In this document: positions 5,524 to 60,002 of the stretch, piece after piece
Layout of the letters: every line of letters starts with the position of its first letter
Position numbering within the stretch: position 1 is the first letter of the stretch
Assembly (NCBI GenBank): GCA_016186915.1
Contig: JACPKU010000006.1
Coordinates: 80,921-144,920 of the forward strand
Length of the DNA stretch: 64,000 nt
Source: Candidatus Doudnabacteria bacterium
Lineage (GTDB): Bacteria; Patescibacteriota; Doudnabacteria; UBA920; O2-02-FULL-48-8
Direction of reading: 5' to 3'
The notes under the pieces: model-generated
Seen by the model: the letters and a program-made list of their open reading frames with translations, nothing else
Databases searched by the model: none
What the model was told of the DNA's origin: nothing
Translations under genes and position numbers: made by a program

Positions 5524-5708
5524 AGCAAGTAAAATATATCACGTAAATATATCACGTTGTGTCCGGTCAGCATATTTGTGATTTTGGACAGAATAACAGC
5601 ACGGGAGTAAGTTGACCAAAAAAAGCGATCGCTTTTTTTGGTCAACGAGGGGTTTCGACACTGTTGCGAACGCTGTTTGTGCGACGGCTGTTTGCGCGAC
5701 GCTGTCTG

Positions 5709-5737
5709 TTGATTTTGTGGTTTGGTTGTGGTATAAT
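5709..5737 (+). promoter_or_regulatory. sigma70-type promoter upstream of subtilase gene
   Basis: ttgatt -35, 17-nt spacer, extended -10 tgGTATAAT (5732..5737). Confidence 0.45.
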
Positions 5738-5931
5738 GTATATATAAATTTCGCGAGGAAGAAATAAACAAGAGTTTGACTCGATTGACCCTTTGACCCG
5801 CCTGCCAGACCGGCAGGCTAGCTCAGAGATCAATTGTTGTCTGAGCGGAGTCGAAGACTAAAATAGTATTTTTTTGACAATTTGATTAGGATTTCATAAA
5901 CTACAACCCCATTTAAAATAGGCTTATCCAC

Positions 5932-7935
5932 ATGTTTAAACAACTGCAATTTATCCTAATTTTTACAATGGTTTTGTCAGTGGCAGCTCCAGCGGCTGCA
6001 GCGCCTTTAGATATTTTTGGCAATAATGGAACAGAAATATTGGTTAAACTGAAAGATTCCACTGAAAGCAGTTTAGAGTCTGTTTTGGCTCGACACCAAG
6101 TGGCCGGTTTACGCAGTCATTTGCGCGGAATCAGGGCCTTGAGTTTTTCGTCTTCGGTTAATTTAAGCGCCAAACTAGCGGCGCTTAACGCCGATCCAGA
6201 CGTAGAGTTTGCCGAACCGAATTACACGGCTCATGCTTATTCCCTGCCTAATGATCAGTATTTTAATTATCAATGGAACATGGGTACAGCCGGCCTGAAT
6301 ATGCCTGAAGTTTGGAATCAGGCCACAGGCTTGGGCGCGGTGGTGGCAGTGATTGACACCGGGGTGGCCTATGAAAACTACCGCAGTTTTATCAAAGCTT
6401 CAGATTTCGAAAATACCAGATTTGTTCCCGGATATAATTTTGTCCGAAACTTCAGTCATGCCAATGACGATAATGGCCACGGCACGCATGTAGCAGGGAC
6501 AATTGCCCAAAGTACTAACAACGGCACAGGAGTGGCCGGAATGGCTTATAACGCCCAAATTATGCCTCTCAAGGCCCTAGATTCAGCAGGTTCCGGCAAA
6601 TATTCCGATATAGCCGATGCTATAGTTTGGGCCGCTGACCGCGGAGCAAATATCATCAACCTCAGTCTTGGCGGGCCTTATCCATCAGAAACAATGCGTC
6701 AGGCTTTGGAATATGCGAAATCAAAAGGGGTTTTGATTGTGGCGGCCACAGGAAATGACGGGGCCAAATCTGTGGGCTACCCAGCGGCTTATGATGATTA
6801 TGTTTTGGCAGTGGGCGCAACCAGATACGACAAGACAGTTACAGCTTACAGCAACCAAGGCCAAGCCTTGGACGTAGTAGCCCCCGGCGGGGATACGAAG
6901 GTGGATCAGGATGGCAATGGCTATGGGGACGGGATTTTACAGCAGACGTTTACCTCGGGTCCCAAAAATATGGGATATTTCTTTTTCCAAGGCACGTCCA
7001 TGGCCACCCCGCACGTGGCAGGATTAGCAGCCCTACTAGTTGAAAAGGGGATTACTAATCCAGATGAATTGCAAAACATAATCCAGGCTTCAGCTGACAA
7101 TTTATATACTTCAGGCTGGGATTCTGCTTCTGGTTGGGGACTTATTAATCCGCTCAAGGCGTTGGAGTTAGCAGTGGAAAACCAAGCAGAAACCATTCCG
7201 GACCCTGATCCGGAATCTGATTCTGGGGAAGATCCTGCATCAAGTGCGGGATGGGAAGAGGAACCTCAAGTGTCAGAACCTGAGCAACAGCCTGAACCTA
7301 ACAAAAAACCTGTTGCTAAATTTAATAGTCAATCAGAGGGGTTGATAGGCGAAGCCATAAATTTTGACGCCTCTGCTTCCACAGACGAGGACGGCAGTAT
7401 TACCAATTTTGCCTGGGATTTTGGGGACGGCTCATCTGCCAGCGGTGCGAAAATAAGCCATAGTTATTCAAAATCCGGCACATATCTCGCAACTCTTACA
7501 GTTACTGACAATGCCCAGGATTCAGCCAGTTTTTCCGCGAATATCAAAATTCTAGAGCCAGAGCAGAAGAAATTTATGCATGTGTCAAGTATTGATCTGG
7601 CTGCCCGGGGCAGTTTTCTTAGAATCAGCGCCAGCGCTACTGTCAAAATCACTGATTCACAAGGAAAACCAGTAAGAAATGCCACGGTTTCAGGGCAATG
7701 GGATGGCTTATCCAGCGGCTCCCAAACTCTCAACACCAACTCCAGAGGCGAAGCAACTTTTTCTTCAGACCGGATTTGGCGCCAATCAGGAGAATTTATA
7801 TTTTCTGTCAAATCAGTGAGCCACGAAGAGTATGAATATAATCCACAAAACAACGAAAAGTCGCGGGAATCAGTGCAGATCGGCAGTTCCAGATCATTCT
7901 CGCTCAGCGACAAAGTTCGCGGACTTATGAACTAA
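5932..7935 (+). CDS. secreted subtilisin-like serine protease (peptidase S8) with N-terminal propeptide and C-terminal PKD domain
   Basis: Signal peptide; catalytic triad motifs VAVIDTGV (Asp), HGTHVAGTIA (His), GTSMATPHVAG (Ser); PKD-like segment AKFNSQSEGLIGEAINFDASASTDEDGSITNFAWDFGDGS...TYLATLTVTDN. Confidence 0.9.
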   Translation: MFKQLQFILIFTMVLSVAAPAAAAPLDIFGNNGTEILVKLKDSTESSLESVLARHQVAGLRSHLRGIRALSFSSSVNLSAKLAALNADPDVEFAEPNYTAHAYSLPNDQYFNYQWNMGTAGLNMPEVWNQATGLGAVVAVIDTGVAYENYRSFIKASDFENTRFVPGYNFVRNFSHANDDNGHGTHVAGTIAQSTNNGTGVAGMAYNAQIMPLKALDSAGSGKYSDIADAIVWAADRGANIINLSLGGPYPSETMRQALEYAKSKGVLIVAATGNDGAKSVGYPAAYDDYVLAVGATRYDKTVTAYSNQGQALDVVAPGGDTKVDQDGNGYGDGILQQTFTSGPKNMGYFFFQGTSMATPHVAGLAALLVEKGITNPDELQNIIQASADNLYTSGWDSASGWGLINPLKALELAVENQAETIPDPDPESDSGEDPASSAGWEEEPQVSEPEQQPEPNKKPVAKFNSQSEGLIGEAINFDASASTDEDGSITNFAWDFGDGSSASGAKISHSYSKSGTYLATLTVTDNAQDSASFSANIKILEPEQKKFMHVSSIDLAARGSFLRISASATVKITDSQGKPVRNATVSGQWDGLSSGSQTLNTNSRGEATFSSDRIWRQSGEFIFSVKSVSHEEYEYNPQNNEKSRESVQIGSSRSFSLSDKVRGLMN

Positions 7936-8120
7936 ACTTCAACAGTTTATCCACAAATTATTAACTTCTCAAATCAAATTCTTAGAAAAACAAAAGAAAA
8001 CAAAGACTTTACAAGAAAATTAATTCAGGATATGGTTTTTTAGCGAACCGATATTTGTTTCAGCTGGCTTGTGGAAATCTAAACTAACCTTTAAGATAAA
8101 CTTCAAAGAAACACCATAAT

Positions 8121-8510
8121 ATGGCTGAAGAAAAGATGACAAATTGCCCGAAATGCGGGAAACCCATACTCAACGGCGGTTTGTTTACTTCTCCGGCCAA
8201 GTTCAACATCAAGTGCCCCTGGTGCCAAGCCACGCTGCAGATCAATATTCAGCCCAGAATCGTTACCGAAGTGATAAAGCTAGGCAATGGTGAAACCCCA
8301 AAAAATGGCGATCCGGTCAGACATGTGGTAAGATCAGAAAAGGCAGAATCAGGAGAAGATGTTGACGATATTTTTACAGGGTTATATTCTATGCAAGAAC
8401 CTATGCAGAAGAAAGAAGAACATCTTAAACCAGGAATACCCTACAAACTGAACGGAAAAGGAATTAAGTTTGTTGGGTACTTGTACCCAGACGATAGGGA
8501 ATCAGGGTAG
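8121..8510 (+). CDS. zinc-ribbon domain protein (hypothetical)
   Basis: CPKCGKP...CPWCQAT four-Cys ribbon at N-terminus; followed by hairpin terminator. Confidence 0.45.
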   Translation: MAEEKMTNCPKCGKPILNGGLFTSPAKFNIKCPWCQATLQINIQPRIVTEVIKLGNGETPKNGDPVRHVVRSEKAESGEDVDDIFTGLYSMQEPMQKKEEHLKPGIPYKLNGKGIKFVGYLYPDDRESG

Positions 8511-8598
8511 TTAATATTTTTAAAAATTGTATTTTCCCCTCGACAAGCTCGGGGTGAATATACACATACGAAGCGGACTACGTGTGCCGCGGGACTAC

Positions 8599-8660
8599 GA
8601 GAGCCCACCTTTGCTAGAAGAACTTTTCAGTTTTTCTATGAAGGTGGGCTCTCGTTTTTT
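8599..8660 (+). terminator. putative terminator hairpin with long loop
   Basis: gagagcccacctt ... aaggtgggctctc 13-bp stem followed by gtttttt. Confidence 0.45.
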
Positions 8661-8890
8661 ACAGGAATTACGTCTGAGCATCTGCCACATTCGTGGTCTG
8701 TCTAATACGAATCGCTGGCTGTTCTTTTCTCGTTCGTGGATTGATACGAATGATGCGAATGACCTAATTTTTGGGCAAGCGATAAAAACGGATCCGGTAG
8801 TGAAATTTAATATGAAATTTACAGCCGCAGGCTGATTAAATTTCTACTACCGGGAAAGGTCGGTCCTAATTAAGAACTAGGAGAAAATAT

Positions 8891-9496
8891 ATGAAAAGGT
8901 TTATTGCAGGCGCAGGAATAGTTGCTCTGGCTCTAGTATCCACAGGGGCTATGGGGGCGACGATCAGTGGCGTTTCAGATTCTTCCACAGCAACTTCCAT
9001 TGCCAGTTGGCTGATCTCGGTGATGATGACCAATAACAACAATGCCGTGATTACCAATAACGTTACTTCCACAGCCAATTCCGGCGGCAACACGTTTGTT
9101 TCCGCGGACGACCAGGAAGGCACGGAGCTCGTTACTGGCGATGCCAATGCCGTAACTTTGGTGGAAAACGCCGCAAACAACAACTTTGTGGAAGAAAACT
9201 ATGAATCAGTCGATGGCGCGGATAACACCATTGAGGACATTACTGACAGTTCCACTGCCACTGCCGCCAGTTCAGATACCCTGGAAAATGAGATTTTGAA
9301 TAACAACGATGTAGAAGTGGAAAACAATGTTGACGCAATGGCTGACACCGGCAGCAACTCGGTAACTTCAGGCGACAGCCTCAAAGGTACCAGAGCTACT
9401 ACTGGAATCGCGGGAGCGGCTACTGGCGTGTCCAACTTATTCAACGTGAATATCAAAGAGATTCAAAGAACAATTTCATCTCGCGTAAGACCGTAA
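8891..9496 (+). CDS. secreted Asn-rich repeat protein, paralog 1
   Basis: Signal peptide MKRFIAGAGIVALALVSTGAMGA; NNNxVxTNNVTSTANSGGNT and DSSTATAASSDTLENEILNNNDVEVENNVD modules; conserved C-terminal tail NVNIKEIQRTISSRVRP; paralog of 9683..10303. Confidence 0.7.
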   Translation: MKRFIAGAGIVALALVSTGAMGATISGVSDSSTATSIASWLISVMMTNNNNAVITNNVTSTANSGGNTFVSADDQEGTELVTGDANAVTLVENAANNNFVEENYESVDGADNTIEDITDSSTATAASSDTLENEILNNNDVEVENNVDAMADTGSNSVTSGDSLKGTRATTGIAGAATGVSNLFNVNIKEIQRTISSRVRP

Positions 9497-9682
9497 TAAG
9501 ATTTTCCTCGCAATGCTGAACTCGGTTCAGCATCTCTATAAAAAGATCCTGAACTTAATTCAGGATTGCGGGAGGAAATAACTCTGAAAGGTCTTTTGAA
9601 CAACAACTAATTAAATCCGCCTTTGTCAGGGAATCCATGGGTTCCACTTGCACAGCCGGTTTCGTGAGGGGGTGAAAGTAAA

Positions 9683-10303
9683 ATGAAAAAAATAATCGCA
9701 AGCGTAGGTTTGGCGGCCATGCTTTTGATGGTCGCGGGCGCTGCTGACGCTGCCGTGATCCGAATGGTCAACGACAGCTCCGTGGCAACTTCAGCCGCTA
9801 CTTGGTCAATCTTGGCGAATATCCTTAACAACAACTCTGCGGGTATTCTCAACACCGTTACCTCCACTGGTAACTCTGGCGCTAATACCGTGGTATCAGC
9901 TGATGACCAGACTGGCACAAGCGTGACTACCGGGAACACTGGTGCAGCTTCAGCAGTTGACGGTGCGGCAGGTCCGGGAAACGTAGCAAACACTAACGTT
10001 GTTTCTGAAACTTTGGAAACACCAGACGGCGCGGATAACCTAATCGAGGACGTCGATGATAGCTCTGTGGCTACCACAGCAAGCGCAGACAGCTTGGAGA
10101 ACAACCTTACCAACAACAATGAGGTAGAAGTTGACAACGACGTTGACGGTACCAGCAATTCTGGTACCAATAGTGTGGTTTCAGGCGACAGCTTGACCAC
10201 CACAACGGTATCAACCGGGACTAACCTAGCCGCTTCGTTGCTGTCCCAAGATTTCAACTTGAACATCAAGGAAGTAATCCGAACTATAAGACAACGACCA
10301 TAG
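9683..10303 (+). CDS. secreted Asn-rich repeat protein, paralog 2
   Basis: Signal peptide MKKIIASVGLAAMLLMVAGAADA; same module order and conserved C-terminal NLNIKEVIRTIRQRP; strong RBS gagggggtga. Confidence 0.7.
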   Translation: MKKIIASVGLAAMLLMVAGAADAAVIRMVNDSSVATSAATWSILANILNNNSAGILNTVTSTGNSGANTVVSADDQTGTSVTTGNTGAASAVDGAAGPGNVANTNVVSETLETPDGADNLIEDVDDSSVATTASADSLENNLTNNNEVEVDNDVDGTSNSGTNSVVSGDSLTTTTVSTGTNLAASLLSQDFNLNIKEVIRTIRQRP

Positions 10304-10576
10304 TCTGACTAATAGTCTTGCAAGAAAAAAAATTACTCGTGTGGCCCTGTACCGAAAGGTACAGGGCACGCAGAGTAACTTATGTGTAGTGTAAGATCCT
10401 ACCTTGGTGTGTGGAGCTTCACTTCTAAGGTACTCTTGCAGGATACCCCCGCCAATTTTTGGCGCGGGCAGGTAAGAGTTGATCGCTCTTACCTAAACTC
10501 TACGGGGAGGGGTTAAGGCCCCTCCCTAGAGAGGAAAAATTAGTGAGTAGTTTGTAGTGAGTAGTGAATAAAATCA

Positions 10577-10939
10577 ATGAAAAACATTGCAGAAAAAATT
10601 TCAATTATATTTTTGCTCGCGGCATTCGCTATGCCGAGTTTCGGCAACTTTCGCCTGAGCAGTTTTTTCTCCACACAACCGCAGACAAAAGCCAAGACTG
10701 ATGTGTCCGCCAATGCTAACGCTGACAATGCCAATCCCGGCGAGGTGCAAACCGGGCAGGCGAGCGCTGAAGTCAGTGTCACCACAGTGGTCAATCTGGA
10801 CATAGAGGACGAACAGACGATTTACGTGCAAGCAGAACCGGGAGAGACTAAATCAGAAAGTTCTGTGAGTGAAGAAGAAGAAAGTGATCCCGTATTTAAT
10901 CCTATAAGAGAAAGAATTTTTAGAATGTTGAGAAGATAG
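10577..10939 (+). CDS. small secreted hypothetical protein
   Basis: Signal peptide MKNIAEKISIIFLLAAFAMPSFG; Asn/Ala-rich then acidic tail; directly upstream of giant ORF. Confidence 0.5.
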   Translation: MKNIAEKISIIFLLAAFAMPSFGNFRLSSFFSTQPQTKAKTDVSANANADNANPGEVQTGQASAEVSVTTVVNLDIEDEQTIYVQAEPGETKSESSVSEEEESDPVFNPIRERIFRMLRR

Positions 10940-10959
10940 TAATCAGTTTGGTCCTATCA

Positions 10960-13900
10960 ATGAATCCAACCATAAAACAGCTCAAGAAATATATCCAAGC
11001 CTTAGATTGCCGAGGCTTGGTTTGGTTGTTTTATGCCGGCTGTTTGGTGGGGTGGTTTGGGTATTTGAAGATTAAAAATAGGACCAATAGGTCGGATAGG
11101 GTTTATAGGTCGGATGGGTCGGGTAGGATTGATAGGATTTATAGGATTGATAGGAATAATAGGTCTGATAGGTCGGATAGGACAAATAGGTCGGATATGC
11201 CGGTGTCGGATAGGGTTTATAGAAATAATGAGATAAATAGGTCGGATAGGAATAATGAGATAAATAGGTCGGATAGGCCGGATATGTCGGATAGGTTTGA
11301 TAAGACCTATAGGACATATTTGACCTATAGGACTAATAAGACTTCTCAAGCCTTGCGTATGGTTAGGCACAAAAAAGCGTACAGCATACAGAGCATAGCG
11401 TATAGTTTTGAAAAAGAGGTGAGGGCACGGATTGCCGGGTTTGTGCTGAAAAACACTTCGGGAGAAGAGGTTTTGCCTGTGGCCTCAAACATCGCCTTAC
11501 TTGCTCGATTGCACTTCGTGTTTTTCAAAGAGCGGGCAAGCCTCGCTTATTTAGATATTAAAAAATACGCCCGCAGGCGATCACGGTATTATCTGCGCAA
11601 AGCCAAGAAGGTCTATGTGCCGGCCGGGATTAGTTTTGCACAAGCTGTGTTTAATCTGAGCTTGGTGGCGCTGGCAGTGTTCGGGTTTGTGGTGGTTATT
11701 ATCGGAAAAACTTTTGCAAAAATTGTGGCGGTGAGCATTGCATCTTTGTCATTGCGAAGCCGAAGGCTGCGGCAATCTTTCATCATGCTAAGTATTAGAT
11801 TGCTTCGTCGCTACCGCTCCTCGCAAAGACTTTTGATTATTCGTCTTCGCGAGCGATCGAAGATCGCGTGGCAATCTATTTCTAGACAAGGGTCCAGATT
11901 GCTTCGTCGCGCTTTGGTCGAAGCAAATCAGCTCCTCGCAATGGTGAGAGCGGCCTTGTTCGTCACCGTGCCATCGCGAGCGCGAAGCGCGAAACGATCT
12001 GTTCTGGAAAGCTTTGACGCGGCCAGAGAACAGAATGTAGTTTTGTATAAATACCTCAGGCACGAATATAAAATAACCAGAAACAGAATTAGACGTCGAT
12101 TTTATAAAAGAGTTGGGCAGATTTTGGTCTGTGCAAAGGTCACCTTCGTTGTAACAACGAAGGTGACCTTTGCAGCCTTACTGTTACTGTATATACGAGT
12201 GAATATACATTATTCCAAGCTAAATTCCACTTTAAGCCGGAAAGCTGCGTCGGCATATATTTACCTTTCACCAAGGGTTGCCCGGTTTGCCAGATTGAGC
12301 ATTGACCGGTTTGAACAGTCAGTCGGCGCCATGGGACGAGCGGTTTTGGCCGGGCTTGATTATTCTCAGAAACTTCTTAGTTTCTTGATTCGTTTAGGGC
12401 GGATTGGGCTGGCGTGGATGGCGGCAGTACTGGTCCCAGTGTCTGAATTTGCAGACATTTGGATTTTTGAGCCTGTCTTAAAAATTCTACAAAGAAAAAT
12501 TGGTTTTATCCGCAAAGCCATGGCGGCAGGGGTTTTGGTGTTTATGGTTGTGGGAAGTATCAGTCCGGCTTTGGCTGTGGTGGAGATCACGCCGCAATCA
12601 ATTGTGGAATTTACTGACGCTGATTTAGATCCGGAAAACCCGGTGCTGCAGCAGGAAGCAAGTGTTACGGGCAATGAGGGCAGTAATACTGTGGCGGACA
12701 TTCAAAAGAAAGTTGAGAAGATTGTGGATTCAGCGACAGGCGATGCAGACAGTTCTGATTCAGCGACCGCAGATGGCAACAGTGAACAGATATCAGATAA
12801 TAGCGCAGACCCTTCAACTTCGGCTGACGACCCCGCTCAGGGATCAGAAGGCGAACCTATCGGGGCCGAAGAGCCGGGATCTGATCCGGGACAGACCCCT
12901 GCTTCCGCAGGGATGGAAGAGAATGCAGAGATAGAAGAGGGCGCAGGGGTGGGAGAAGAAACAGGCTCGCTCTTACTAACGCCCTGCACGGTGTCCAATT
13001 CTATGGAATTGGACAGTGAGGGGTCGCCAGTGGAAGATGTCCAAGCAGACGGGTTATCAGAGGAGTTAGAGATTGTCGAAAGCCAAGCAGACGCTGCGGG
13101 AACAACTGATGCGTCGGAGCAGGTTGTTGCAGGAGACGATGAAGATGAATTAGATTCTTCTGTGCCGGGAACGAATCAGCACGACAGCGAAGCAGGAGAC
13201 GCGGAATGCGCTCAACAAGAGCAGGTCCAGGAACAAAGTGAGGCTGGGGTGCAGGCTATCAATCCTAATGACTCTTCACTTCTGGACAGTAAACAGATTA
13301 AGAAAAACATTGTCGAGATCGTCAATACCAACAGCATCAAAGTGACCAACCAAGTGGATTCGGGTTCTTTAACTGGCCAGAACACGGTTTCGGCCGGAGA
13401 CAGCGGGAAGGATGTATTTTTGGGCTCTGGCAACATCAACATTCACGCCAATGTTTTGAACGTGGTCAACACCAATTTGTATAATTCCAAGATTGTAGAG
13501 ATTGCGGAGAATTTCAACAATCTCACGGCCGATGTATTGCTCAACCATCCGGAAACCAGACCCGCGGAATTAACCCAGGATCTGGTTAATTATGTTTGCG
13601 GGTCGTCGCTGACTTGCGAAAGTTTGAGTTCGTTTAATTTGACCAATAAAAACAATGCCGAGGTGGAGAACAACGTCAATGTGTTGGGAAACAGCGGACA
13701 GAATCTCCTGGAGAACATCAAAGAACGGGGCACGATAAGAAGTGGAGACATCAATGCTTTGGTCAATGTTTTGAATATTGTAAATAGTAACTTGGTCAAT
13801 TCCCGCTGGACCATTGCCTCGATCAATGTGTTCGGGGACTGGGAAGGCGATTTGGTCCTGCCGTCCGAACTTTATTTTACTGACTTTTTCCAGCTGGGCG

Positions 13901-16900
13901 CGACTGACAATTCTGATATCAAAATTGAAGACATCAAAAAAGTTCTGATCAACGTCAACAATGACAATGACGTGGAGGTTCAGAACAACGTACTGGTCAA
14001 TTCTGACAGCGGCAAGAACTCGATTGAAGCGACCAAGAGCGCGGACGGCAAAGGCGGCGGGCTGGAAAACGACAAGATCGGCACGGGCGAGAGCCGCGGC
14101 GAGTCCAACGTAAAAAACTATGTCAACACCAACGTGTTCAACGGCAAGTGGTATCTGGGCATGGTGAACACTTTGGGTGCTTGGTCAGGGGACGTGTATT
14201 CTCTGCCAGAGCGAGTGGCGCTGGGCACCACGCCGACTGGTCTGTCCTTCTTCTCATCGAACAGCAAGGATTCAGATTTGGCTTATCAATTGTTTGAAGA
14301 GACGATTGCCGACATCAATCGGACCGACAACACTTTGATCGATATCCAAAACCAGAACAAAGCCAAGATCGTGAACAATGTGGATTTGGGCGTGCTGTCG
14401 GGTGAGAACGGCATTAAAGGCAATGAGATGAACGTAGAGGAGAGCAGCATCTTCTCCGGCAATACTTACGCGCTTGCCAATATTTTGAATTTTGCCAATA
14501 CCAATCTTATTAACGCGGATTTGAACATTGGCTTGGTCAATGTTTTCGGCAGATGGAACGGGAATGTGCTGTTCGGCTTTCCTGATCTGACGGTGAGCCA
14601 AACCACCAGGCAGGAATTCCCAAAAGAAAAGAACCAGCAGGTAATTTATGATTTGACTTACTCGAACATAGGATCATCCTCGATGATCGGCGGAAGTCTT
14701 GAATGGCATTATGACAGCAATTTACTGCGTTTGGATTCAGTGGATCCGGCAGTAAGTTATGAGAAAAAACTGCCAGGCGTGGTGGAGTTTGATTTGGGCA
14801 GGGTCGGGCCGAAGAGCAGTCGAACGCTGGCTGTAAAACTGACCACTCTCAAAGATCTGGCAGTAAATACCGAAATAGAGAGTTATGCCCGTGTATTTGG
14901 TTTGGGACCGGAGAGGGTGAAAGAGAACAATGAAAGCGTGTTGGTAACAAAAGCCACGACTACGACTGGTTCTTCGGGGCCCCCGCCAAGTAATGATCCG
15001 CCGCCAGGCAATGACCCGCCAGCGAATAACGATAACGGAAGCGATCCGAATAATGATGACGCGGCAGGCGGAGATAATAATCAGGAAACAGAAAACAGTA
15101 ATCAAGACGATCCTTCGAATGAAGGAGGTAGTGATCCGAACCAAGAACAAGAAGAGCAACCAGAAGAACAGCCGCAGGATGGAACACAAAATCAACAGCC
15201 GCAGGATAATCAGAGTTCAGATCCAGATAACAGTCAGCAAGAAAACAACCAGCAAGAACAACAGAATGACCAAAACAGCAACCAGAATAAGAATACCAAC
15301 CAGCAGCAACAGCAGAACAAACAAGGTCAGAACCAGCAGCAGCAAAATCAGCAACAGCAGCAAAATCAACGGACTGCTTCCGGGCTGATCCGGGTTTACA
15401 AAACCAGTAATGCCCTAAGCCAAGGAGTGAAGCCTGGTGAGCCGGTGGAGTTTACCTTGATCGTGGACAATGACGGCGTGGATGCGGTATTTAATGTGGT
15501 GTTGTATGATACGCTTAGAGGACCGGATGGCGCGACTATAACCACGCGCAAGTTCCCGCTGGGCAGGATGGAGTCGGGCGAGGAAGTGGTTTTGGTTTAT
15601 GAGATTGATGCCAATCCTTTTGCTCCTGCCGGCACTTACACCAACACAGCTTATGTTGAGGCCTTGAATTTCCAACTGCGGCCAATAAAGTCACAGTCCA
15701 CGGCCCTTAGCAGTTTTATCTTGATTAACCCCAATCCAGAGCCGGTGCCTGAAGATGACGAAGCTGAACTGGTTAAGGATAACAAGCAGGATGAAGAACA
15801 GCAGAAACAAATAGAAGAAGACAAGCAAGACGAAGAGCAGAAAGACGATTCTCTGGAGGAAAATGTTGGAAAAGACCAAGAGAAAGAAGAAGTGGGACTG
15901 TTGAGCGAGAAGGATAAAAACAAGCCAATCAACACAAATACCGTCAAGGGAGGGAGGTTCTCAAGAACCAACCCTGAAGCGAACGCGGTGGCTTCCGCTT
16001 CTCTGCCGTTTGGTGAGTTGACTCCCGCGGCACAAGCCGAGCTTATAGACATCATTCCGTTGTTGGAAAATTCACCTGTCCGCGAAGGAGTGAGGAGCGA
16101 TTCTGCCCGCCAGATGACAATGTTTGTAATCATCGCGGCCCTCATGGGTTTGGGCTACGCCGCGGCAAATTTGGTAAATAGGCTTAAACAAGCAAAAGTA
16201 CAAAAATTAACCAACAACAACATGCCAGGCAAAGACAAAATCCTGCTGCTGATCCTAGCTTTGGTGCTCGGAAACAACGGGATGGGCGCGGTTCTCGATA
16301 TTAATCTCAGTATTCCGACAGCGCACGCCGCAGCACAAAGCTGTACCACTCCGACCGTAATTTCCTTCCCGTTCGCAGTGCAGGGCAACACGGGCGGCGT
16401 GGATCTGAATTCGAATGCGAAAGTAACCGGCAATGTTTACTCCAACGCCAACATTAATGGACAATTATTCGCAAAGGTCATAGGGAACGCAGCGGCAGTA
16501 GGAACGATTACAGATACACAAGTGAGCGGGACAGCGACCACTGGCGCGGCGCCTGCAGGTATGCCGGCAGTGAACGCAGCGGATTGGAAAGCCTCAGCGC
16601 TCTTGGGCGGGACAACTGGCAGCGTTAGTTTTCCAGTCAATAGCAGTGGAAATAACTTGGGACCAAAGAAGATCGACGGCGATTTGATTTTGAATGATAA
16701 TTCCGAAGTGCAAGTTAACGGCACGATTCACGTGACCGGTGAGGTAGTGGTGGGTGCAAACGCTAAACTTCATGTTAATCCTGTTTTAGGATCTTTGGGA
16801 ACTGTAATTATTGCCGACGGGAAAATTAACATTGATGGCAACGGGCACGTGGATGGGACGGGGGGAGGCGGATTCATGCTCATGATCTCTTTAAGCTCAG

Positions 16901-19665
16901 GCAGTGACGCGATTAATCTACAGCCAAACTTTACCTCTTCCACCGCGGTGTTTTATTCGCTCAATGACGGGCTGATGGTCGGTTCGAACTCACAAATTGT
17001 AGGCGCCTATGGAGAACGTGTCACGGTGCAGAGCAATGCCAAGGTTTCTCACGTGCCGGGCTTGCAGTTCGCCACCTTTGTCTGTCCGCCGCCAGCGCAA
17101 ACACCTAACATCACCGTGACCAAAGCAGCAGACAAACCCTCAATACTTGCTGGGGAAACTATAACTTTTACTTTAGAAGTGGAGAATAGCGGGACGGTGG
17201 CAGCGAATAATGTTACGCTCACTGATATTTTATCACCTGAATTTGAGTTCGTCGGTTCAACGCCCAGTCCGACCACAACGATTGTGACCGGTTCTGGCAC
17301 AGAGTTGAAATACAGCTTAAGTGAAGTTGGGGTCAATGAAACTAAAACCGTAACGATTGAAGCCAAAGCGGTGAGCAGTATCACTACCAGCATAGTTGTA
17401 GAAAACAAAGCTGTAGCCACAGGTGACAATTTTACACCCGAAGACTCCAACACTGTTGACGTGACTATCAACCCTATCCCCGCACCAGTGATGCCAATAA
17501 TCACGGTGACAAAATCTTCTGACAAATCTACAGTCTTGGCTGGCGATACAGTTATATTTACTTTGGAAATAGCAAACAGCGGCACGGCGGACGCGACCAA
17601 TGTGGTGTTGAGCGATACTCTGACTTTAGAATTTGAATTTATCTCCAGCACCCCAAGTCCTACAAGCAATACGGTTACCGCGACCGGCACAGAGCTGACT
17701 TTCGATCTGGGAACCGTGGCGATGGGCAGCTCTTCCACCATTACAATTGAAGTAAAAACTGACAGATTCGAATATCGTAAATGTCACAATCGATCCTTTG
17801 CCACTGCCTCCTATACCAACCAATCCTGTTATCAATGTTACCAAATCCGCAGACCATCCATCAGTTACGGCTGGCGATACAGTTATATTTACTTTGGAAA
17901 TAGCAAACAGCGGCACGGCGGACGCGACCAATGTGGTGTTGAGCGATACTCTGGGTTTAGAATTTGAATTTATCTCCAGCACCCCAAGTCCTACAAGCAA
18001 TACGGTTACCGCGACCGGCACAGAGCTGACTTTCGATCTGGGAACCGTGGCGATGGGCAGCTCTTCCACCATTACAATTGAAGTAAAAACTGACAGATCG
18101 CAACCACTACTTTGGTGGAAAATAAAGCGGTGGCAGACGGCGACAATTTTGGATCCGAAGAATCGAACACCGTGGAGCTAACAATTAACCCGCTTTCTGG
18201 AGGCGGTGGCACACCCACGGGTCCTACGATTACCAAAAGTGCCTCAAACACATCGGTAGTCGCAGGACAGGAGATTACGTATACCATTGAAGTTGAAAAT
18301 GATTCGTCCGACACTTTGGTGGATGCGGCGGTAAGGGACATCCTGGACCAGAATCTTGAATTTGTTTCTGCTAATCCACCTCCTACTACCAACACGACTG
18401 TTTTGGGTGTAACCACCTTAACTTGGGAAATAGGCGATCTTGGCGTAGGAGAGAAGTTTACGATTGAACTAAAGGTAGAGGTAAAAAGCGGAACTGTTTC
18501 CGGAACTATTATTGAAAATGACGCTGAATTGAGCGCTGATCAGTTCAACCCCATCACTGCAGGTGCCCCTGACGTAGAAGTAACCAGTCCGCCATCCGGC
18601 GGCGGCAGTGGCGGCGGCGGCAGTGGCGGCGGCGCAATTATGCCGCCCCCAAACTATGAGGCAAATATGGAGTTTGTGTTTGCTGACCCCAAGGTTAAAG
18701 GTGAAGATTACGGGGAATCGGTAACCATTACCAACACTGGCAGTATAGCTTTGAGCCCTGGGGATTTGACAGTGACTTTTCCGCTAAGCCTGAACGTGGT
18801 CACTCTCAGTCCGTCTGCCATATCATTTGCAGGCAATGTCGCGACTTGGTCTGTCCCGGTAATTCCAGTGGGCGGCTCCTATACCGTGTCCTTCACCGTT
18901 AAACCCAATGCAACGGGAACCAATATTATTACCGTGGCCAATTATTACATTGGCACGCAACAGATCGCAGTAGCGAGCGCTTCAGAGAACGTGGGAGATG
19001 TGGCGGGGGAAACTGCGCCTGAACTTCCCAGAACAGGCGCGGGTGCGGCTTATTTGCTGCTTGTGAACCTACCACTGTTATTTATGAGAAGGCTGAAGAA
19101 AGCTTTGGCTGCTTTGTTTTTGTTGGCGGCTGGCTTCTTGGCGCTTAATTTTAGTTATTTTAAGGAAGTGGTCAGCTTTTCGCTCAACAAACAACGTCAA
19201 GAGCAGGAACAGCTTTTGGTGGAGGAAGAACTGCCGCCCAATACTTTGACCGTGCCGAGTTTGGGAATTATGGTGCCGATCATCCTTGATTCAGGCAGCT
19301 CTGAATCGGAATTTCAGGAAGCCTTGCGAAACGGGGTGGTGCATTATCCCGGCACGGCGCAGGTCGGGCAGGCAGGCAACAGTTATATATTCGGGCATTC
19401 ATCTGATTATTTCTGGAGCAGAGGGAATTACAAGACCGTGTTTGCGGTTTTGCCCAAGATCAATATTGGTGATGAGGTTATGGCTACAGATGCCGAAGGA
19501 CAAGAGTACTTTTATCAGGTCAAAGAGACCAAAGTCGTCGGCCCTTCAGATCTGTCAGTGCTGGAACAGGATTACACCAAGAAACGATTAACTTTACAAA
19601 CTTCGTATCCCATAGGGACGGCCTTGAAGCGGTTTATAGTAATTGCTGAACTGAAAGAAGAGTAA
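10960..19665 (+). CDS. giant (~2900 aa) surface protein: Arg-rich tripeptide-repeat N-region, TM/signal-like segment, acidic region, four ~85-aa Asn-rich repeats, DUF11-type repeats, LPRTG sorting motif, C-terminal sortase-like domain. Frame interrupted by a compensating frameshift pair at about 17760 and 18095.
   Basis: Track ORFs 10948..17967 (frame 1), 17798..18181 (frame 2) and 18112..19665 (frame 1) are colinear. Frame 1 is stop-free for 1570 nt upstream of the first clear signal-like segment (MAAGVLVFMVVGSISPALA at 12520), which is far beyond chance. DUF11-like units (VTKxxDKxxVLAGDTVIFTLEIANSGTADATNVVLSDTL) repeat. LPRTG followed by a hydrophobic segment and RRLKK. Nothing was checked by a domain search. 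Confidence 0.6.
11078..11340 (+). repeat. 9-bp tandem minisatellite (~29 units, consensus (g/a)ATAGGTCG) lying in-frame inside the giant ORF
   Basis: aataggacc aataggtcg gatagggtt tataggtcg ... read directly; encodes tripeptide repeats (NRS/DRV/YRS...). Confidence 0.9.
19084..19665 (+). CDS. sortase-like domain (possible independent start at ATG 19084) with Ser in place of the catalytic Cys
   Basis: MRRLKKALAALFLLAAGFLALNFSYF signal-anchor; IFGHSSDYF (sortase His motif); LTLQTSYPIGTALKRFIV aligns to the TLxTC...R signature with C->S (codon tcg). Confidence 0.6.
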   Translation: MRRLKKALAALFLLAAGFLALNFSYFKEVVSFSLNKQRQEQEQLLVEEELPPNTLTVPSLGIMVPIILDSGSSESEFQEALRNGVVHYPGTAQVGQAGNSYIFGHSSDYFWSRGNYKTVFAVLPKINIGDEVMATDAEGQEYFYQVKETKVVGPSDLSVLEQDYTKKRLTLQTSYPIGTALKRFIVIAELKEE

Positions 19666-34357: not shown

Positions 34358-34514
34358 AAATAAGAAAGCGAGTGATTAGGTTTTTACTATCACGATAGCT
34401 ATTGTGATAGTACTTGTTATGATGATGGGAACGTGTTAACCTCAAAGGATATATACGACGGATAAATACGACGGAAAGTGCGCGGCTGCGAAAAAGACGA
34501 AATGCTGGCTGCGT

Positions 34515-34548
34515 GTTTATATTTATAACGATCGTGAAAAATATAAAC
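34515..34548. repeat. palindromic element GTTTATA-tttataACGATCGTgaaaaa-TATAAAC (copy 1)
   Basis: Second, perfect copy at 48585..48618; shared flanks cgtg...aaacagSgg. Confidence 0.8.
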
Positions 34549-34771
34549 AGGGGCCTTAGGGCCTTGGCTTTCTTTTTGTGTGCTTTCTTTTTGCGGCGAT
34601 ATTGAGTATAATAAGCAGGTATTATGCCAGGTAGTAGAATTTTATTATATGTTTTGCTCAAGCGAAACATCTAATAAAACCATTGGATAAATTCAGATTA
34701 AATTACTACCGGCATCGCAAATCGAATCCAGATAGATAAATTATCATCTAATCAGACTTTCACTACCTGGT

Positions 34772-48579: not shown

Positions 48580-48584
48580 TTCGT

Positions 48585-48618
48585 GTTTATAATTTCTACG
48601 ATCGTAGAAATTATAAAC
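48585..48618. repeat. 34-nt perfect palindrome gtttataatttctacgatcgtagaaattataaac (copy 2 of palindromic element); likely bidirectional terminator
   Basis: Between convergent mnmA and 48707..49165(-). Confidence 0.8.
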
Positions 48619-48706
48619 AGCGGGAGATGAGAATGAAGATGAGAATAAAAAAGAGGAGCGGACGAGGGTTCGTACGCTCCGGATGCGAGGCCGGGGCCGG
48701 CCAGAA

Positions 48707-58503: not shown

Positions 58504-59115
58504 ATGCATATAATAACTTCAAAGGCGGCTTTTGCCGCTATTCAATTTTTTATGAATAAACATTTAGAACCGATTTTTAGAAAAGTATTACCAGCTTTAG
58601 ATGAAGCTGATATTGATTACTGGGTTTACGGTGGTGTGGCCATTGCCGGTATAGAAGGGGATTTTTATCGGTATAATGAAGATGTCGATATTTTTATTTT
58701 TGATAATGATTATCAGCGAACCTTGGAAGTAATTGAAAATCTGAATTATAATTGGAGTAAAGTCAAACACGCAAAACTCCTTAATGGAATACGTCCAAAA
58801 GAGGAATACTTTGTTAAGGATCAAAAGGAAGATATATTTTCGGTAATCCCAGTCTATAAAATTAATGATAATAAAATTAAGTTTGTTTATTCCAAAGATT
58901 TAGTTCCAGTCAACCCACTAACTCGAGAAAAGAGAATCATTGGAAGTTATACATTTTTTACCCCTGGCAGTGAGTTTATCAAAGAACAGTTTATCCATAA
59001 AATAAAAGGGAAAATTTTCAAACAGGCGGAATTATCGGAAAATGAGGAAAAGGATGCCGAGGTTTTGTTCGGTCCCGATTATTTAAAAACAATAACTGCT
59101 TTAGTTCATTCCTGA
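58504..59115 (+). CDS. nucleotidyltransferase-fold protein (hypothetical)
   Basis: YGGVAIAGIEGDFYRYNEDVDIFIF resembles minimal NTase GG...DhD motif. Confidence 0.4.
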   Translation: MHIITSKAAFAAIQFFMNKHLEPIFRKVLPALDEADIDYWVYGGVAIAGIEGDFYRYNEDVDIFIFDNDYQRTLEVIENLNYNWSKVKHAKLLNGIRPKEEYFVKDQKEDIFSVIPVYKINDNKIKFVYSKDLVPVNPLTREKRIIGSYTFFTPGSEFIKEQFIHKIKGKIFKQAELSENEEKDAEVLFGPDYLKTITALVHS

Positions 59116-59344
59116 CCCTTCTCTAATACACGAAGTATACGAAGGTCACCTTTGCAATTTGGATTTTAAGCTGCTGTTGACCGTCTCGACTTCGCCCGAG
59201 GCCTTCGGCGAGACATAGTTTTTGTTTTAGGGAATTAAAATGTTAGAATTAAAATAGGTGTATATGGGTGAATATATTTTTTGTAAATTATGAGAGAGAC
59301 GTCATCAGGCCATAAGATTTGGGGGAAGAGGGAAAGTCAAAACC

Positions 59345-59726: not shown

Positions 59727-60002
59727 GTGAATTATTCTTCTATGCCCACTTTAGAAAGACAACTTAAGGCGTTAGCGAATAAAAGAAGATTAGCGATAAT
59801 CAAATTTTTGGATAATCGCCGCGAAGCGTCGGTGGGTACGATTGCGGGCTGGATTAGATTGTCTTTCAAGTCTACATCCAAGCATTTATCAATTTTATCC
59901 GCGGTTGACATCGTGGATAAGGAGCAGCGCAGCAAAACCGTGTTTTATCATCTGGTTTCGCCGAAATCCAATTTAGTCAAACAAATTTTATCTCTGCTTT
60001 AA
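59727..60002 (+). CDS. ArsR/SmtB-family transcriptional regulator
   Basis: LKALANKRRLAIIKFL...VGTIAG...SKHLSIL...VFY winged-HTH pattern. Confidence 0.55.
   Translation: MNYSSMPTLERQLKALANKRRLAIIKFLDNRREASVGTIAGWIRLSFKSTSKHLSILSAVDIVDKEQRSKTVFYHLVSPKSNLVKQILSLL

Follow-up and report, generated by a model that had tools for sequence, protein, structure and literature searches.

Does the long open frame that precedes the signal peptide of a giant bacterial surface-protein gene encode protein, and if so, of what kind? The question is raised by a 64,000-nt stretch of DNA from a Candidatus Doudnabacteria bacterium (assembly GCA_016186915.1, contig JACPKU010000006.1, positions 80,921 to 144,920; hereafter the window), a segment of bacterial chromosome carrying rpoA, L13/S9, secA, secDF, murG, murC and H+-PPase. 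The SecA encoded there shows 100% identity to a protein from a Candidatus Doudnabacteria metagenome-assembled genome. The initial annotation, made from the letters of the window, had left the choice between an unusual basic cytoplasmic domain with a length-variable tripeptide repeat and a constrained non-coding leader. The feature is real and unusual: a fibrillar adhesin anchored in the membrane, whose signal peptide is preceded by an orphan, highly basic and fast-growing extension. Judging from its domains and junctions, the giant open reading frame (ORF) is an in-frame fusion of an N-terminal extension (N-ext), an adhesin A and the 5' part of an adhesin/sortase B. That the N-ext is translated in frame 1 is nearly certain, and it is likely that 10960-12576 encodes a genuine N-terminal extension of ~540 amino acids (aa) of a fibrillar-adhesin/sortase fusion protein.

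10948 (TTG) or 10960 (ATG) to 17967, + strand: giant ORF, 2335 codons plus stop when read from 10960.
12496 to 12576, + strand: internal Sec-type signal peptide, aa 513-539, with n-region KIGFIRK, h-region AMAAGVLVFMVVGSI and c-region SPALA; Kyte-Doolittle hydropathy (KD) 2.28.
12577 to 16176, + strand: exported body of adhesin A, with an acidic linker, an NTN-repeat region, CLIPPER/NEW3 domains and a C-terminal transmembrane anchor at 16114-16176.
16222 to 16329, + strand: module B signal peptide, MPGKDKILLLILALVLG...AHA, continuous in frame with the tail of A.

Expressed in residues, the N-ext covers aa 1 to ~512, adhesin A extends from the signal peptide at aa 513-539 to the anchor at aa 1719-1739, and module B begins at aa 1755. 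All Pfam domains recognized in the giant ORF (CLIPPER/DUF11, CLIPPER_2 and NEW3) lie in the body, and none in aa 1-520. PF01345 matches three stretches with 115.8 bits (cut-off 24.6) and PF24346 scores 29.6 bits, which by gathering score makes the protein a CLIPPER/DUF11 fibrillar adhesin; CLIPPER is the isopeptide-bonded stalk domain of such adhesins (PMC12617251). The next ORF (18112-19665) has DUF11 plus a sortase domain, also by Pfam.

Within the N-ext, the following segments can be distinguished.

10960 to 11076, + strand: conserved first 39 codons, MNPTIKQLKKYIQALDCRG followed by the hydrophobic helix LVWLFYAGCLVGWFGYL at 11017-11067.
11077 to 11346, + strand: degenerate in-frame 9-bp minisatellite, ~30 units xAT-AGG-xxx encoding [N/D/Y]-R-[S/T/I/V].
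11419 to 11637, + strand: basic segment containing the conserved islands VRARIAGF (11419-11442) and RxRYYLRKxKKVYxPAGI (11578-11637).
11626 to 11754, + strand: 43-residue hydrophobic stretch, aa 223-265, with a KD peak of 2.78 and Arg/Lys runs on either side.
11755 to 12123, + strand: poorly conserved Arg/Leu-rich middle part with decayed internal duplications and the island RLRERSKIAW (11842-11871).
12132 to 12174, no strand: perfect 43-nt palindrome, arms 12132-12152 and 12154-12174, encoding CAKVTFVVTTKVTFA.
12358 to 12417, + strand: DYSQKLLSFLIRLGRIGLAW, the most conserved island of the N-ext (aa 467-486), leading into a hydrophobic segment.

Between 10960 and 12520, frame 1 has no stop, against 27 and 53 in the other forward frames and 22, 16 and 17 in the reverse frames, so that the long open frame first noticed among stop-rich ones was correctly described; from base composition, 520 codons without a stop have a probability of ~8e-15. 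Because every 9-bp unit of the array has a TAG in one frame, openness inside the array alone is weak evidence, and the statistical weight of the open frame rests on the 1.17 kb 3' of it. Codon usage points the same way: under a model trained on 20 window genes and applied in 180-nt windows, frame 1 scores best in every one of them, and the score is at the normal coding level (0.35 +/- 0.15 bits per codon in reference genes) in 11320-11680 and from 12310 onward.

The evidence that carries the coding status comes from a relative, L004 (GCA_030699765.1), whose SecA is ~15% diverged from that of the window. The two loci are syntenic (S8 protease, four small genes, giant gene), and L004, with a 2240-aa protein, has the same N-ext-A-B fusion. 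Its frame opens at an ATG located 333 nt 5' of the called start, the same ATG as in the window, and reads MNPSIKQLRKIIQALDCRGLVWLFYAACLAGWFGYLKIKNRSNRS..., beginning MNPxIKQL. The resulting N-ext of 697 codons contains no in-frame stop, as opposed to 23-68 stops in the other frames of L004. Over aa 127-515, the proportion of synonymous differences (pS) between the two species is 0.698 (0.757 for random codon pairing), that is, synonymous saturation, and the proportion of nonsynonymous differences (pN) is 0.416 vs. 0.731 for random pairing (z = 8.7). The latter lies far under pS and remains below saturation in each sub-segment of the N-ext (0.35-0.48 vs. 0.73). It is nonetheless ~4 times that of the adhesin core (0.416 vs. 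0.106), and aa identity is 40% in the N-ext alignment, which has 157 gap columns, vs. 84% in the core.

Conservation is concentrated in islands whose codons have changed. In the first 45 aa, 39 residues are identical to L004 with nine synonymous codon changes (pN 0.075, pS 0.45). VRARIAGF is identical at all eight positions with four synonymous codon differences, and RxRYYLRKxKKVYxPAGI at 16 of 20 with nine. All 20 residues of DYSQKLLSFLIRLGRIGLAW are shared, most of the codons being changed (e.g., CGT/AGG, CGG/AGA, CTT/TTA). All blastn high-scoring segment pairs between the two N-exts are in one phase, and no compensated frameshift separates them. By this pattern of substitution, the frame, the start codon and several aa islands are under purifying selection. 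The remainder of the N-ext evolves ~4-5 times faster than the body of the adhesin.

These observations bear directly on the alternative that the region is a non-coding leader, a structured RNA or an artefact of collapsed repeats, which we regard as extremely improbable. In its favor, local RNA structure is strong at 11220-11420 (inverted final units and hairpins, z ~-6) and at the palindrome, with z from -6 to -8 overall; folded as RNA, the palindrome gives a 20-bp hairpin of -48 kcal/mol (z -7.6). The start region can also pair with the first repeat units in both species. On the other side, conservation follows the protein, the palindrome is absent from the ortholog, and Rfam offers no family: the sole match, a microRNA model on the palindrome, has 24.8 bits against a gathering score of 130 and is meaningless. 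With the same ATG and an open frame in an ortholog at saturation, pN far below pS and islands with changed codons, the leader proposed by the initial annotation is refuted. Terminator-like sites are no commoner than in shuffled sequences, and the promoter and terminator scan yielded no convincing internal promoter.

A separate observation concerns the start codon itself. The sequence GGTCCTAT, the inverse of the repeat unit ATAGGACC, lies directly 5' of the start codon or overlaps it in both species.

10948 to 10961 and 11078 to 11087 in the window, 9660 to 9670 in L004: GGTCCTAT/repeat sites, with predicted pairing to the first repeat units.

A conserved 5' RNA structure hiding the start codon was considered, being predicted in both species. 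It was rejected as unsupported: window and L004 show no compensatory pairs in it, and substitutions preserve the pairing no better than chance (P ~0.2).

As for the artefact, this locus was recovered in six independent single-run assemblies (L005-L010), which show 100% identity to the window wherever they align with it. L007 covers 5617-17567 and L009 reaches 12668; three others (L005, L008 and L010) break off at 11824-11826. Together, the six recover the array, the A-B junction and, in both L007 and L009, the palindrome; the reproduction of the region by these two assemblies clears it of the suspicion of collapsed repeats. The same set nevertheless points to variation at one position.

11826 to 11827, no strand: recurrent contig end, shared within 2 nt by four independent assemblies (L005, L006, L008 and L010).

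Past 11826, L006 diverges into TGACATGATGGGGTCATT, a small hairpin-like sequence with an in-frame TGA after codon 289; this variant tail has no match in the window, the fetched loci or viral contigs. The site is probably a structural variant in the population, and suggests a second haplotype or an insertion.

Which parts of the N-ext are constrained, and which merely kept open? The array belongs to the latter. The ~29 tandem 9-bp units of the initial annotation hold as a count (~30 are parsed at 11077-11346) but not as a clean minisatellite, the units being degenerate. Tandem Repeats Finder returns arrays with periods of 9 and 27 bp (71-96% matches), located at 11087-11197, 11219-11277 and 11264-11296. 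Parsed in register, the array shows 14 units with the core xAT-AGG-xxx (at most one mismatch), then a 3-nt register shift, then more degenerate units; the final ones are inverted (GACCTAT) and encode x-T-Y. Arg is encoded by AGG in 20 of 22 cases. Across the units, the first codon is AAT, GAT or TAT, and the AGG is swapped for ATG, AAG, GGG, TGG, TTG or GAG. These swaps show no chemical conservation; therefore, amino-acid selection in the array is weak and acts mainly against stops. The L004 array follows the same pattern with ~27 units, reshuffled relative to those of the window. Two further ideas about the array were discarded. First, its low pS does not reveal constraint at the DNA level, random pairing of units giving similarly low values. 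Second, a role of the NRS/NRT units as N-glycosylation sequons was dropped, since no oligosaccharyltransferase is encoded nearby and the motif follows the codon pattern.

A short tandem repeat in the 5'-terminal part of a gene for a surface protein, with unit number and order differing between the window species and L004, calls to mind a contingency locus for phase or antigenic variation, whose copy number would change at high frequency. We hold this to be very improbable. A 9-bp unit is a multiple of three and allows no on/off switch of the frame, the units are degenerate (71% matches) rather than a homogeneous tract, and the array is predicted to lie on the cytoplasmic side, away from the exposed part. 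Moreover, the six assemblies, which come from two sample series, carry an identical array, no copy-number difference being seen among them. The array thus has neither the frame-shifting unit nor the homogeneous tract with copy-number differences expected of contingency loci. The repeat initially described as length-variable does vary between species (~30 vs. ~27 units) but not within the population sampled by these assemblies, where the anticipated contingency-type variation failed to appear.

The palindrome was accurately described at the outset: its 21-nt arms are 100% complementary, with a 1-nt spacer, which makes it the longest perfect inverted repeat of the window. Both arms encode KVTF because the inner 11-mer AAGGTSACCTT is itself palindromic. 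In the window it replaces a 57-nt stretch between flanks still homologous to L004 (GCAAAG ... CTTACNGTNACTGTAT), and in L004 it is absent with the frame kept. Presence in one ortholog and absence from the other without loss of frame is the pattern of insertions resembling Rickettsia palindromic elements (RPEs), and it is found at 12132-12174. Each arm contains the 17-mer CGAAGGTSACCTTTGCA, of which a single further copy exists within the 64 kb.

59140 to 59156, + strand: third exact copy of CGAAGGTSACCTTTGCA, intergenic, 25 nt past the stop of ORF 58504-59115 and near a gene for an ArsR-like helix-turn-helix protein (59727-60002).

The chance expectation for such an exact third copy is ~1e-5, and a scan of viral contigs for the 17-mer gave a single chance-level match. 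The palindrome may represent an in-frame insertion of a small palindromic element, a protein-binding site or a template-switch product.

Duplication has also shaped the middle part. A 15-mer (11797 and 11896) and an 11-mer (11816 and 11931) recur there as decayed internal duplications. The motifs attgcttcg and cgaagcaat, first reported as inverted, are present, but mostly as direct repeats left by an old duplication: ATTGCTTCG is repeated directly at 11799 and 11898, and no exact reverse complement of it exists in the region, where only CGAAGCAA is present, at 11919. In its middle part, L004 has a 43-nt module in three copies, as well as a duplication of 127 nt whose copies lie 633 nt apart, amounting to ~190 extra codons; the window retains two decayed copies of that module. 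The changes in N-ext length are all in frame, and include turnover of 9-bp units, duplications of 43-127 nt, deletions in multiples of three and one inverted duplication.

An alternative view is that most of the N-ext is nearly functionless, and open only for read-through from 10960, as a neutral ratchet after capture of an upstream start. Its Arg/Leu/Ser-rich, basic make-up would then be that of near-random sequence grown by duplication. The low identity to L004 and its 157 gap columns next to a well-conserved adhesin core, the AGG swaps in the array, the weak codon score at 11680-12300, the tolerated 43-nt inverted duplication and ~190-codon length differences, and the lack of a predicted fold all agree with it. 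However, pN is 0.35-0.48 everywhere vs. 0.73 for random pairing, islands of strong conservation occur along the whole length between aa 1 and aa 540, and an extreme positive charge is kept in both species (K+R/D+E of 104/34 and 113/49). The ratchet fits in part, namely the middle part and the array, but not the islands or the conserved charge; as an account of the N-ext as a whole we judge it unlikely, though still to be reckoned with.

Where did the N-ext come from? A HMMER search of 1.84 billion representative proteins retrieved two relatives only, a 289-aa fragment identical to the window and the L004 protein. The N-ext has no match in Pfam, NCBIfam or the PDB (including a PDB profile search), and genome and metagenome contigs, scanned four times with patterns built from single sequences and from alignments, yielded none. 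A word-indexed protein search with aa 1-560 likewise gave no match, its own sequence included, low-complexity words having probably saturated the search. No paralogous or frame-shifted source was found by blastn, tblastx or tblastn in the window or the related loci. For the adhesin, a query taken from the central part of the ORF retrieved 65 homologues in Patescibacteria, all 900-1100 aa long, starting with an ordinary signal peptide and ending in a membrane anchor plus basic tail. Orthologs P0001-P0015 begin where the N-ext ends, their signal peptides aligning with aa 513-539 of the window. In L001, the next closest relative and 67% identical in the core, the frame is open 5' to the contig end, and the 34 residues upstream of the signal helix are similar to those of the window (E = 9e-20). 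Distant orthologs are devoid of the extension; P0004 has one of 55 residues, not demonstrably related. The phylogenetic pattern of these homologues thus presents the N-ext as a recent invention of one small Doudnabacteria clade.

The 3' half of the giant ORF has a history of fusion. At the A-B junction (16114-16329), the anchor helix and tail ..GYAAANLVNRLKQAKVQKLTNNN read without a stop into the module B signal peptide MPGKDKILLLI..AHA, as they also do in L004. The A and B genes of L001 are distinct and overlap by 4 nt, B being fused to the sortase; in L011, A, B and sortase are three genes. The locus was therefore fused step by step in this clade. The L001 gene additionally carries an in-frame TAG (646-648) in the acidic linker between signal peptide and core, and is called as two pieces; pseudogenization, strain variation and sequencing error are possible causes of this stop. 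Near the other end, a CLIPPER module is directly repeated at 17500-18098 (268 nt, 94% identical). As its spacing of 331 nt is not a multiple of three, the giant ORF ends at 17967 by a frameshift and restarts at 18112 with DUF11 plus sortase. Real pseudogenization and mis-assembly of near-identical modules are the two explanations for this frameshift, L007 and L004 both ending before or at the 268-nt repeat. The C-termini of adhesin A (16045-16176; P0001-P0010) share a short [LI]-I-P-E/L-like motif, a helix with GYAxAN and a basic tail next to an adjoining sortase gene, and may represent a non-LPXTG sorting signal of Patescibacteria.

Since every other ortholog begins at the signal peptide, is the N-ext attached to the adhesin at all? 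It could be a separate upstream membrane-protein gene lacking its stop, adhesin A being translated for the most part from an initiation site inside the frame, close to the signal peptide. The h-region opens with ATG (window) or GTG (L004), and L004 has another ATG 20 codons further upstream; the A-B junction is comparable, the two genes being separate in relatives; and the genome uses little or no Shine-Dalgarno signal. Several facts stand in the way. Although divergence is saturated, neither species has a stop. A start at the ATG/GTG would leave out the basic n-region that both species conserve upstream of it (window KIGFIRK, L004 RSVFIRK). L001 has CTG at the first h-region codon, and the window offers no ATG, GTG or TTG between V494 and M521. 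We consider an internal start unlikely as the main source of adhesin A, and synthesis of the N-ext as one chain with adhesin A quite probable.

The segment at aa 513-539 has the composition of a Sec signal peptide, with a basic n-region, an h-region and small residues at -3 and -1 (AxA), and it aligns with the signal peptides at the N-termini of the orthologs, whose last residues are PALA, PVLA, PAVA, SAQA, TASA or PAMA. It departs from them in position, starting not at the extreme N-terminus but at residue 513 of a conserved ORF, which is the anomaly. Cleavage after Ala539 is predicted with somewhat less than even confidence.

What would the preceding residues do? Their charge gives one indication. 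Residues 1-520 contain 104 K+R vs. 34 D+E (isoelectric point 11.3), with 113 vs. 49 in the N-ext of L004, and the exported adhesin has 79 K+R vs. 198 D+E (isoelectric point 4.1). By the positive-inside rule, net charges of ~+70 for the N-ext and ~-119 for the passenger imply that the N-ext would stay on the cytoplasmic side. Hydropathy gives another, with hydrophobic segments at aa 20-36, 223-265, 389-414, 472-503 and 519-539. The stretch at aa 223-265 is also hydrophobic in L004, and under the same rule we infer a two-helix membrane hairpin. A search for amphipathic helices in the Arg-rich part gave no significant signal (z only 1.9). Overall, we lean toward an N-ext that is mainly cytoplasmic or membrane-embedded with its N-terminus inside. 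The basic cytoplasmic domain with tripeptide repeat first suggested is thus broadly upheld, with three amendments: the conserved hydrophobic segments make it membrane-embedded rather than simply soluble, it ends in an internal Sec-type signal peptide where the orthologs begin, and its repeat varies in length between species only.

Taken together, these predictions outline a possible mechanism. The N-ext would be held in the membrane by the conserved hydrophobic segments (aa 20-36, the hairpin at 223-265, and 472-503), its Arg-rich loops remaining cytoplasmic according to the positive-inside rule. The tripeptide array would act as a low-constraint, disordered and charged spacer between the first helix and the remainder. 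Residues 519-539 would then cross the membrane with their N-terminal end in and their C-terminal end out, carrying the adhesin outward, and signal peptidase I could cut at the conserved SP-x-LA site, freeing the adhesin and leaving a basic membrane protein of ~540 residues. A second internal signal peptide (16222), which follows the anchor helix and a short basic loop, would separate A from B likewise. The basic domain may serve as an anchor or orientation device for its extremely acidic passenger, or as a binder of lipid or nucleic acid.

Carried further, the giant ORF would be a bacterial membrane "polyprotein", with three modules split by signal peptidase I after Ala539 and after AHA at 16329. 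The first module would be a clade-specific, very basic membrane protein that arose de novo and grew by in-frame duplication, and the relatives would record the series from A / B / sortase through A / B-sortase to N-ext-A-B-sortase. This full scheme is doubtful as it stands.

Several points weigh against a translated, membrane-inserted extension, and temper the confidence expressed here. The dN/dS argument rests on one full ortholog and one saturated pair, with an alignment interrupted by gap columns. The codon score is weak in the array and at 11680-12300, at -0.07 to 0.21 bits per codon. AlphaFold2, run on a two-sequence alignment, models the N-ext as all helix with no confident fold (predicted local distance difference test score 41.8, predicted template modelling score 0.20). 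The hydrophobic segment at aa 389-414 exists in the window only, where it was created by the palindrome. The first helix is basic at both its N-terminal tail and its C-terminal flank, which leaves its orientation ambiguous, and the ATG or GTG that opens the signal h-region makes an internal start possible.

Two observations concern the surroundings of the giant gene. Small secreted proteins (~120, 200 and 200 aa) without a Pfam match are always encoded 5' of the adhesin gene, in an order that varies by genome.

8891 to 10939 in the window, 6521 to 9564 in L004, 8070 to 9842 in L002, 4151 to 5861 in L011: small-secreted-protein set.

In addition, a 36-nt palindromic motif (TGTTTATAnnTnnnACGA/TCGTnnAnnnTATAAACA) occupies intergenic positions 34514-34549 and 48584-48619, upstream of secA and of ORF 48683, respectively. 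None of 100 shuffles gave any match to it, and it is probably a shared operator.

The N-ext represents a checkable case of a large orphan protein segment under selection, in one shallow clade of an uncultivated phylum. Its growth by minisatellite, module and inverted duplications makes it useful for studying the origin of new protein sequence. If the internal signal peptides are used, the first of which lies ~510 residues into the conserved ORF and the second further down, bacteria can build surface machinery from a single membrane-threaded precursor. This would change the annotation of Patescibacteria loci, as gene callers now truncate, split or drop them. In the meantime, we advise annotating the coding sequence from 10960, and not as a leader or pseudogene.

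How does the locus compare with known systems? A bacterial polyprotein of this kind, divided by internal signal peptides, is not known to us, and searching the literature gave no precedent either for such a polyprotein or for a Patescibacteria sortase adhesin of this type. Flavivirus polyproteins offer an analogy only: like the giant ORF, they consist of a single frame in which membrane segments alternate and internal signal peptides offer AxA-type sites (here at 12576 and 16329), but that system is viral and eukaryotic, and processing of the giant ORF is a prediction. The Ser-Asp R region of staphylococcal Clf/Sdr proteins, with its 18-bp unit, resembles the array as a tandem unit in a multiple of three, a simple charged repeat and a drifting spacer. 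Unlike it, the array has a 9-bp unit ([N/D/Y]-R-x), sits close to the N-terminus, on the side predicted to be cytoplasmic, and is degenerate and invariant among the six assemblies. RPEs share with the 43-nt palindrome an in-frame, translated position, absence from the ortholog and partial recurrence in the genome. They are, however, 100-150 nt long, whereas the palindrome has 43 nt and one further 17-nt copy in 64 kb, and a template-switch inverted duplication explains it equally well. The extended signal peptide region (ESPR) of autotransporters and two-partner secretion proteins likewise precedes, as extra conserved sequence, the otherwise ordinary Sec signal peptide in very large surface proteins. 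It comprises ~25 residues with a recognizable motif, whereas the N-ext has 510-690 basic residues with membrane segments of its own and no sequence relation to it (no Pfam match). Also comparable are the CLIPPER (DUF11) fibrillar adhesins with sortase (PMC12617251), which have in common with the giant ORF the CLIPPER/DUF11, CLIPPER_2 and NEW3 domains, a signal peptide, a C-terminal anchor, a basic tail and a downstream sortase domain. Those adhesins start at the signal peptide, whereas the giant ORF places ~510 residues before it and fuses the adhesin to an adhesin-sortase.

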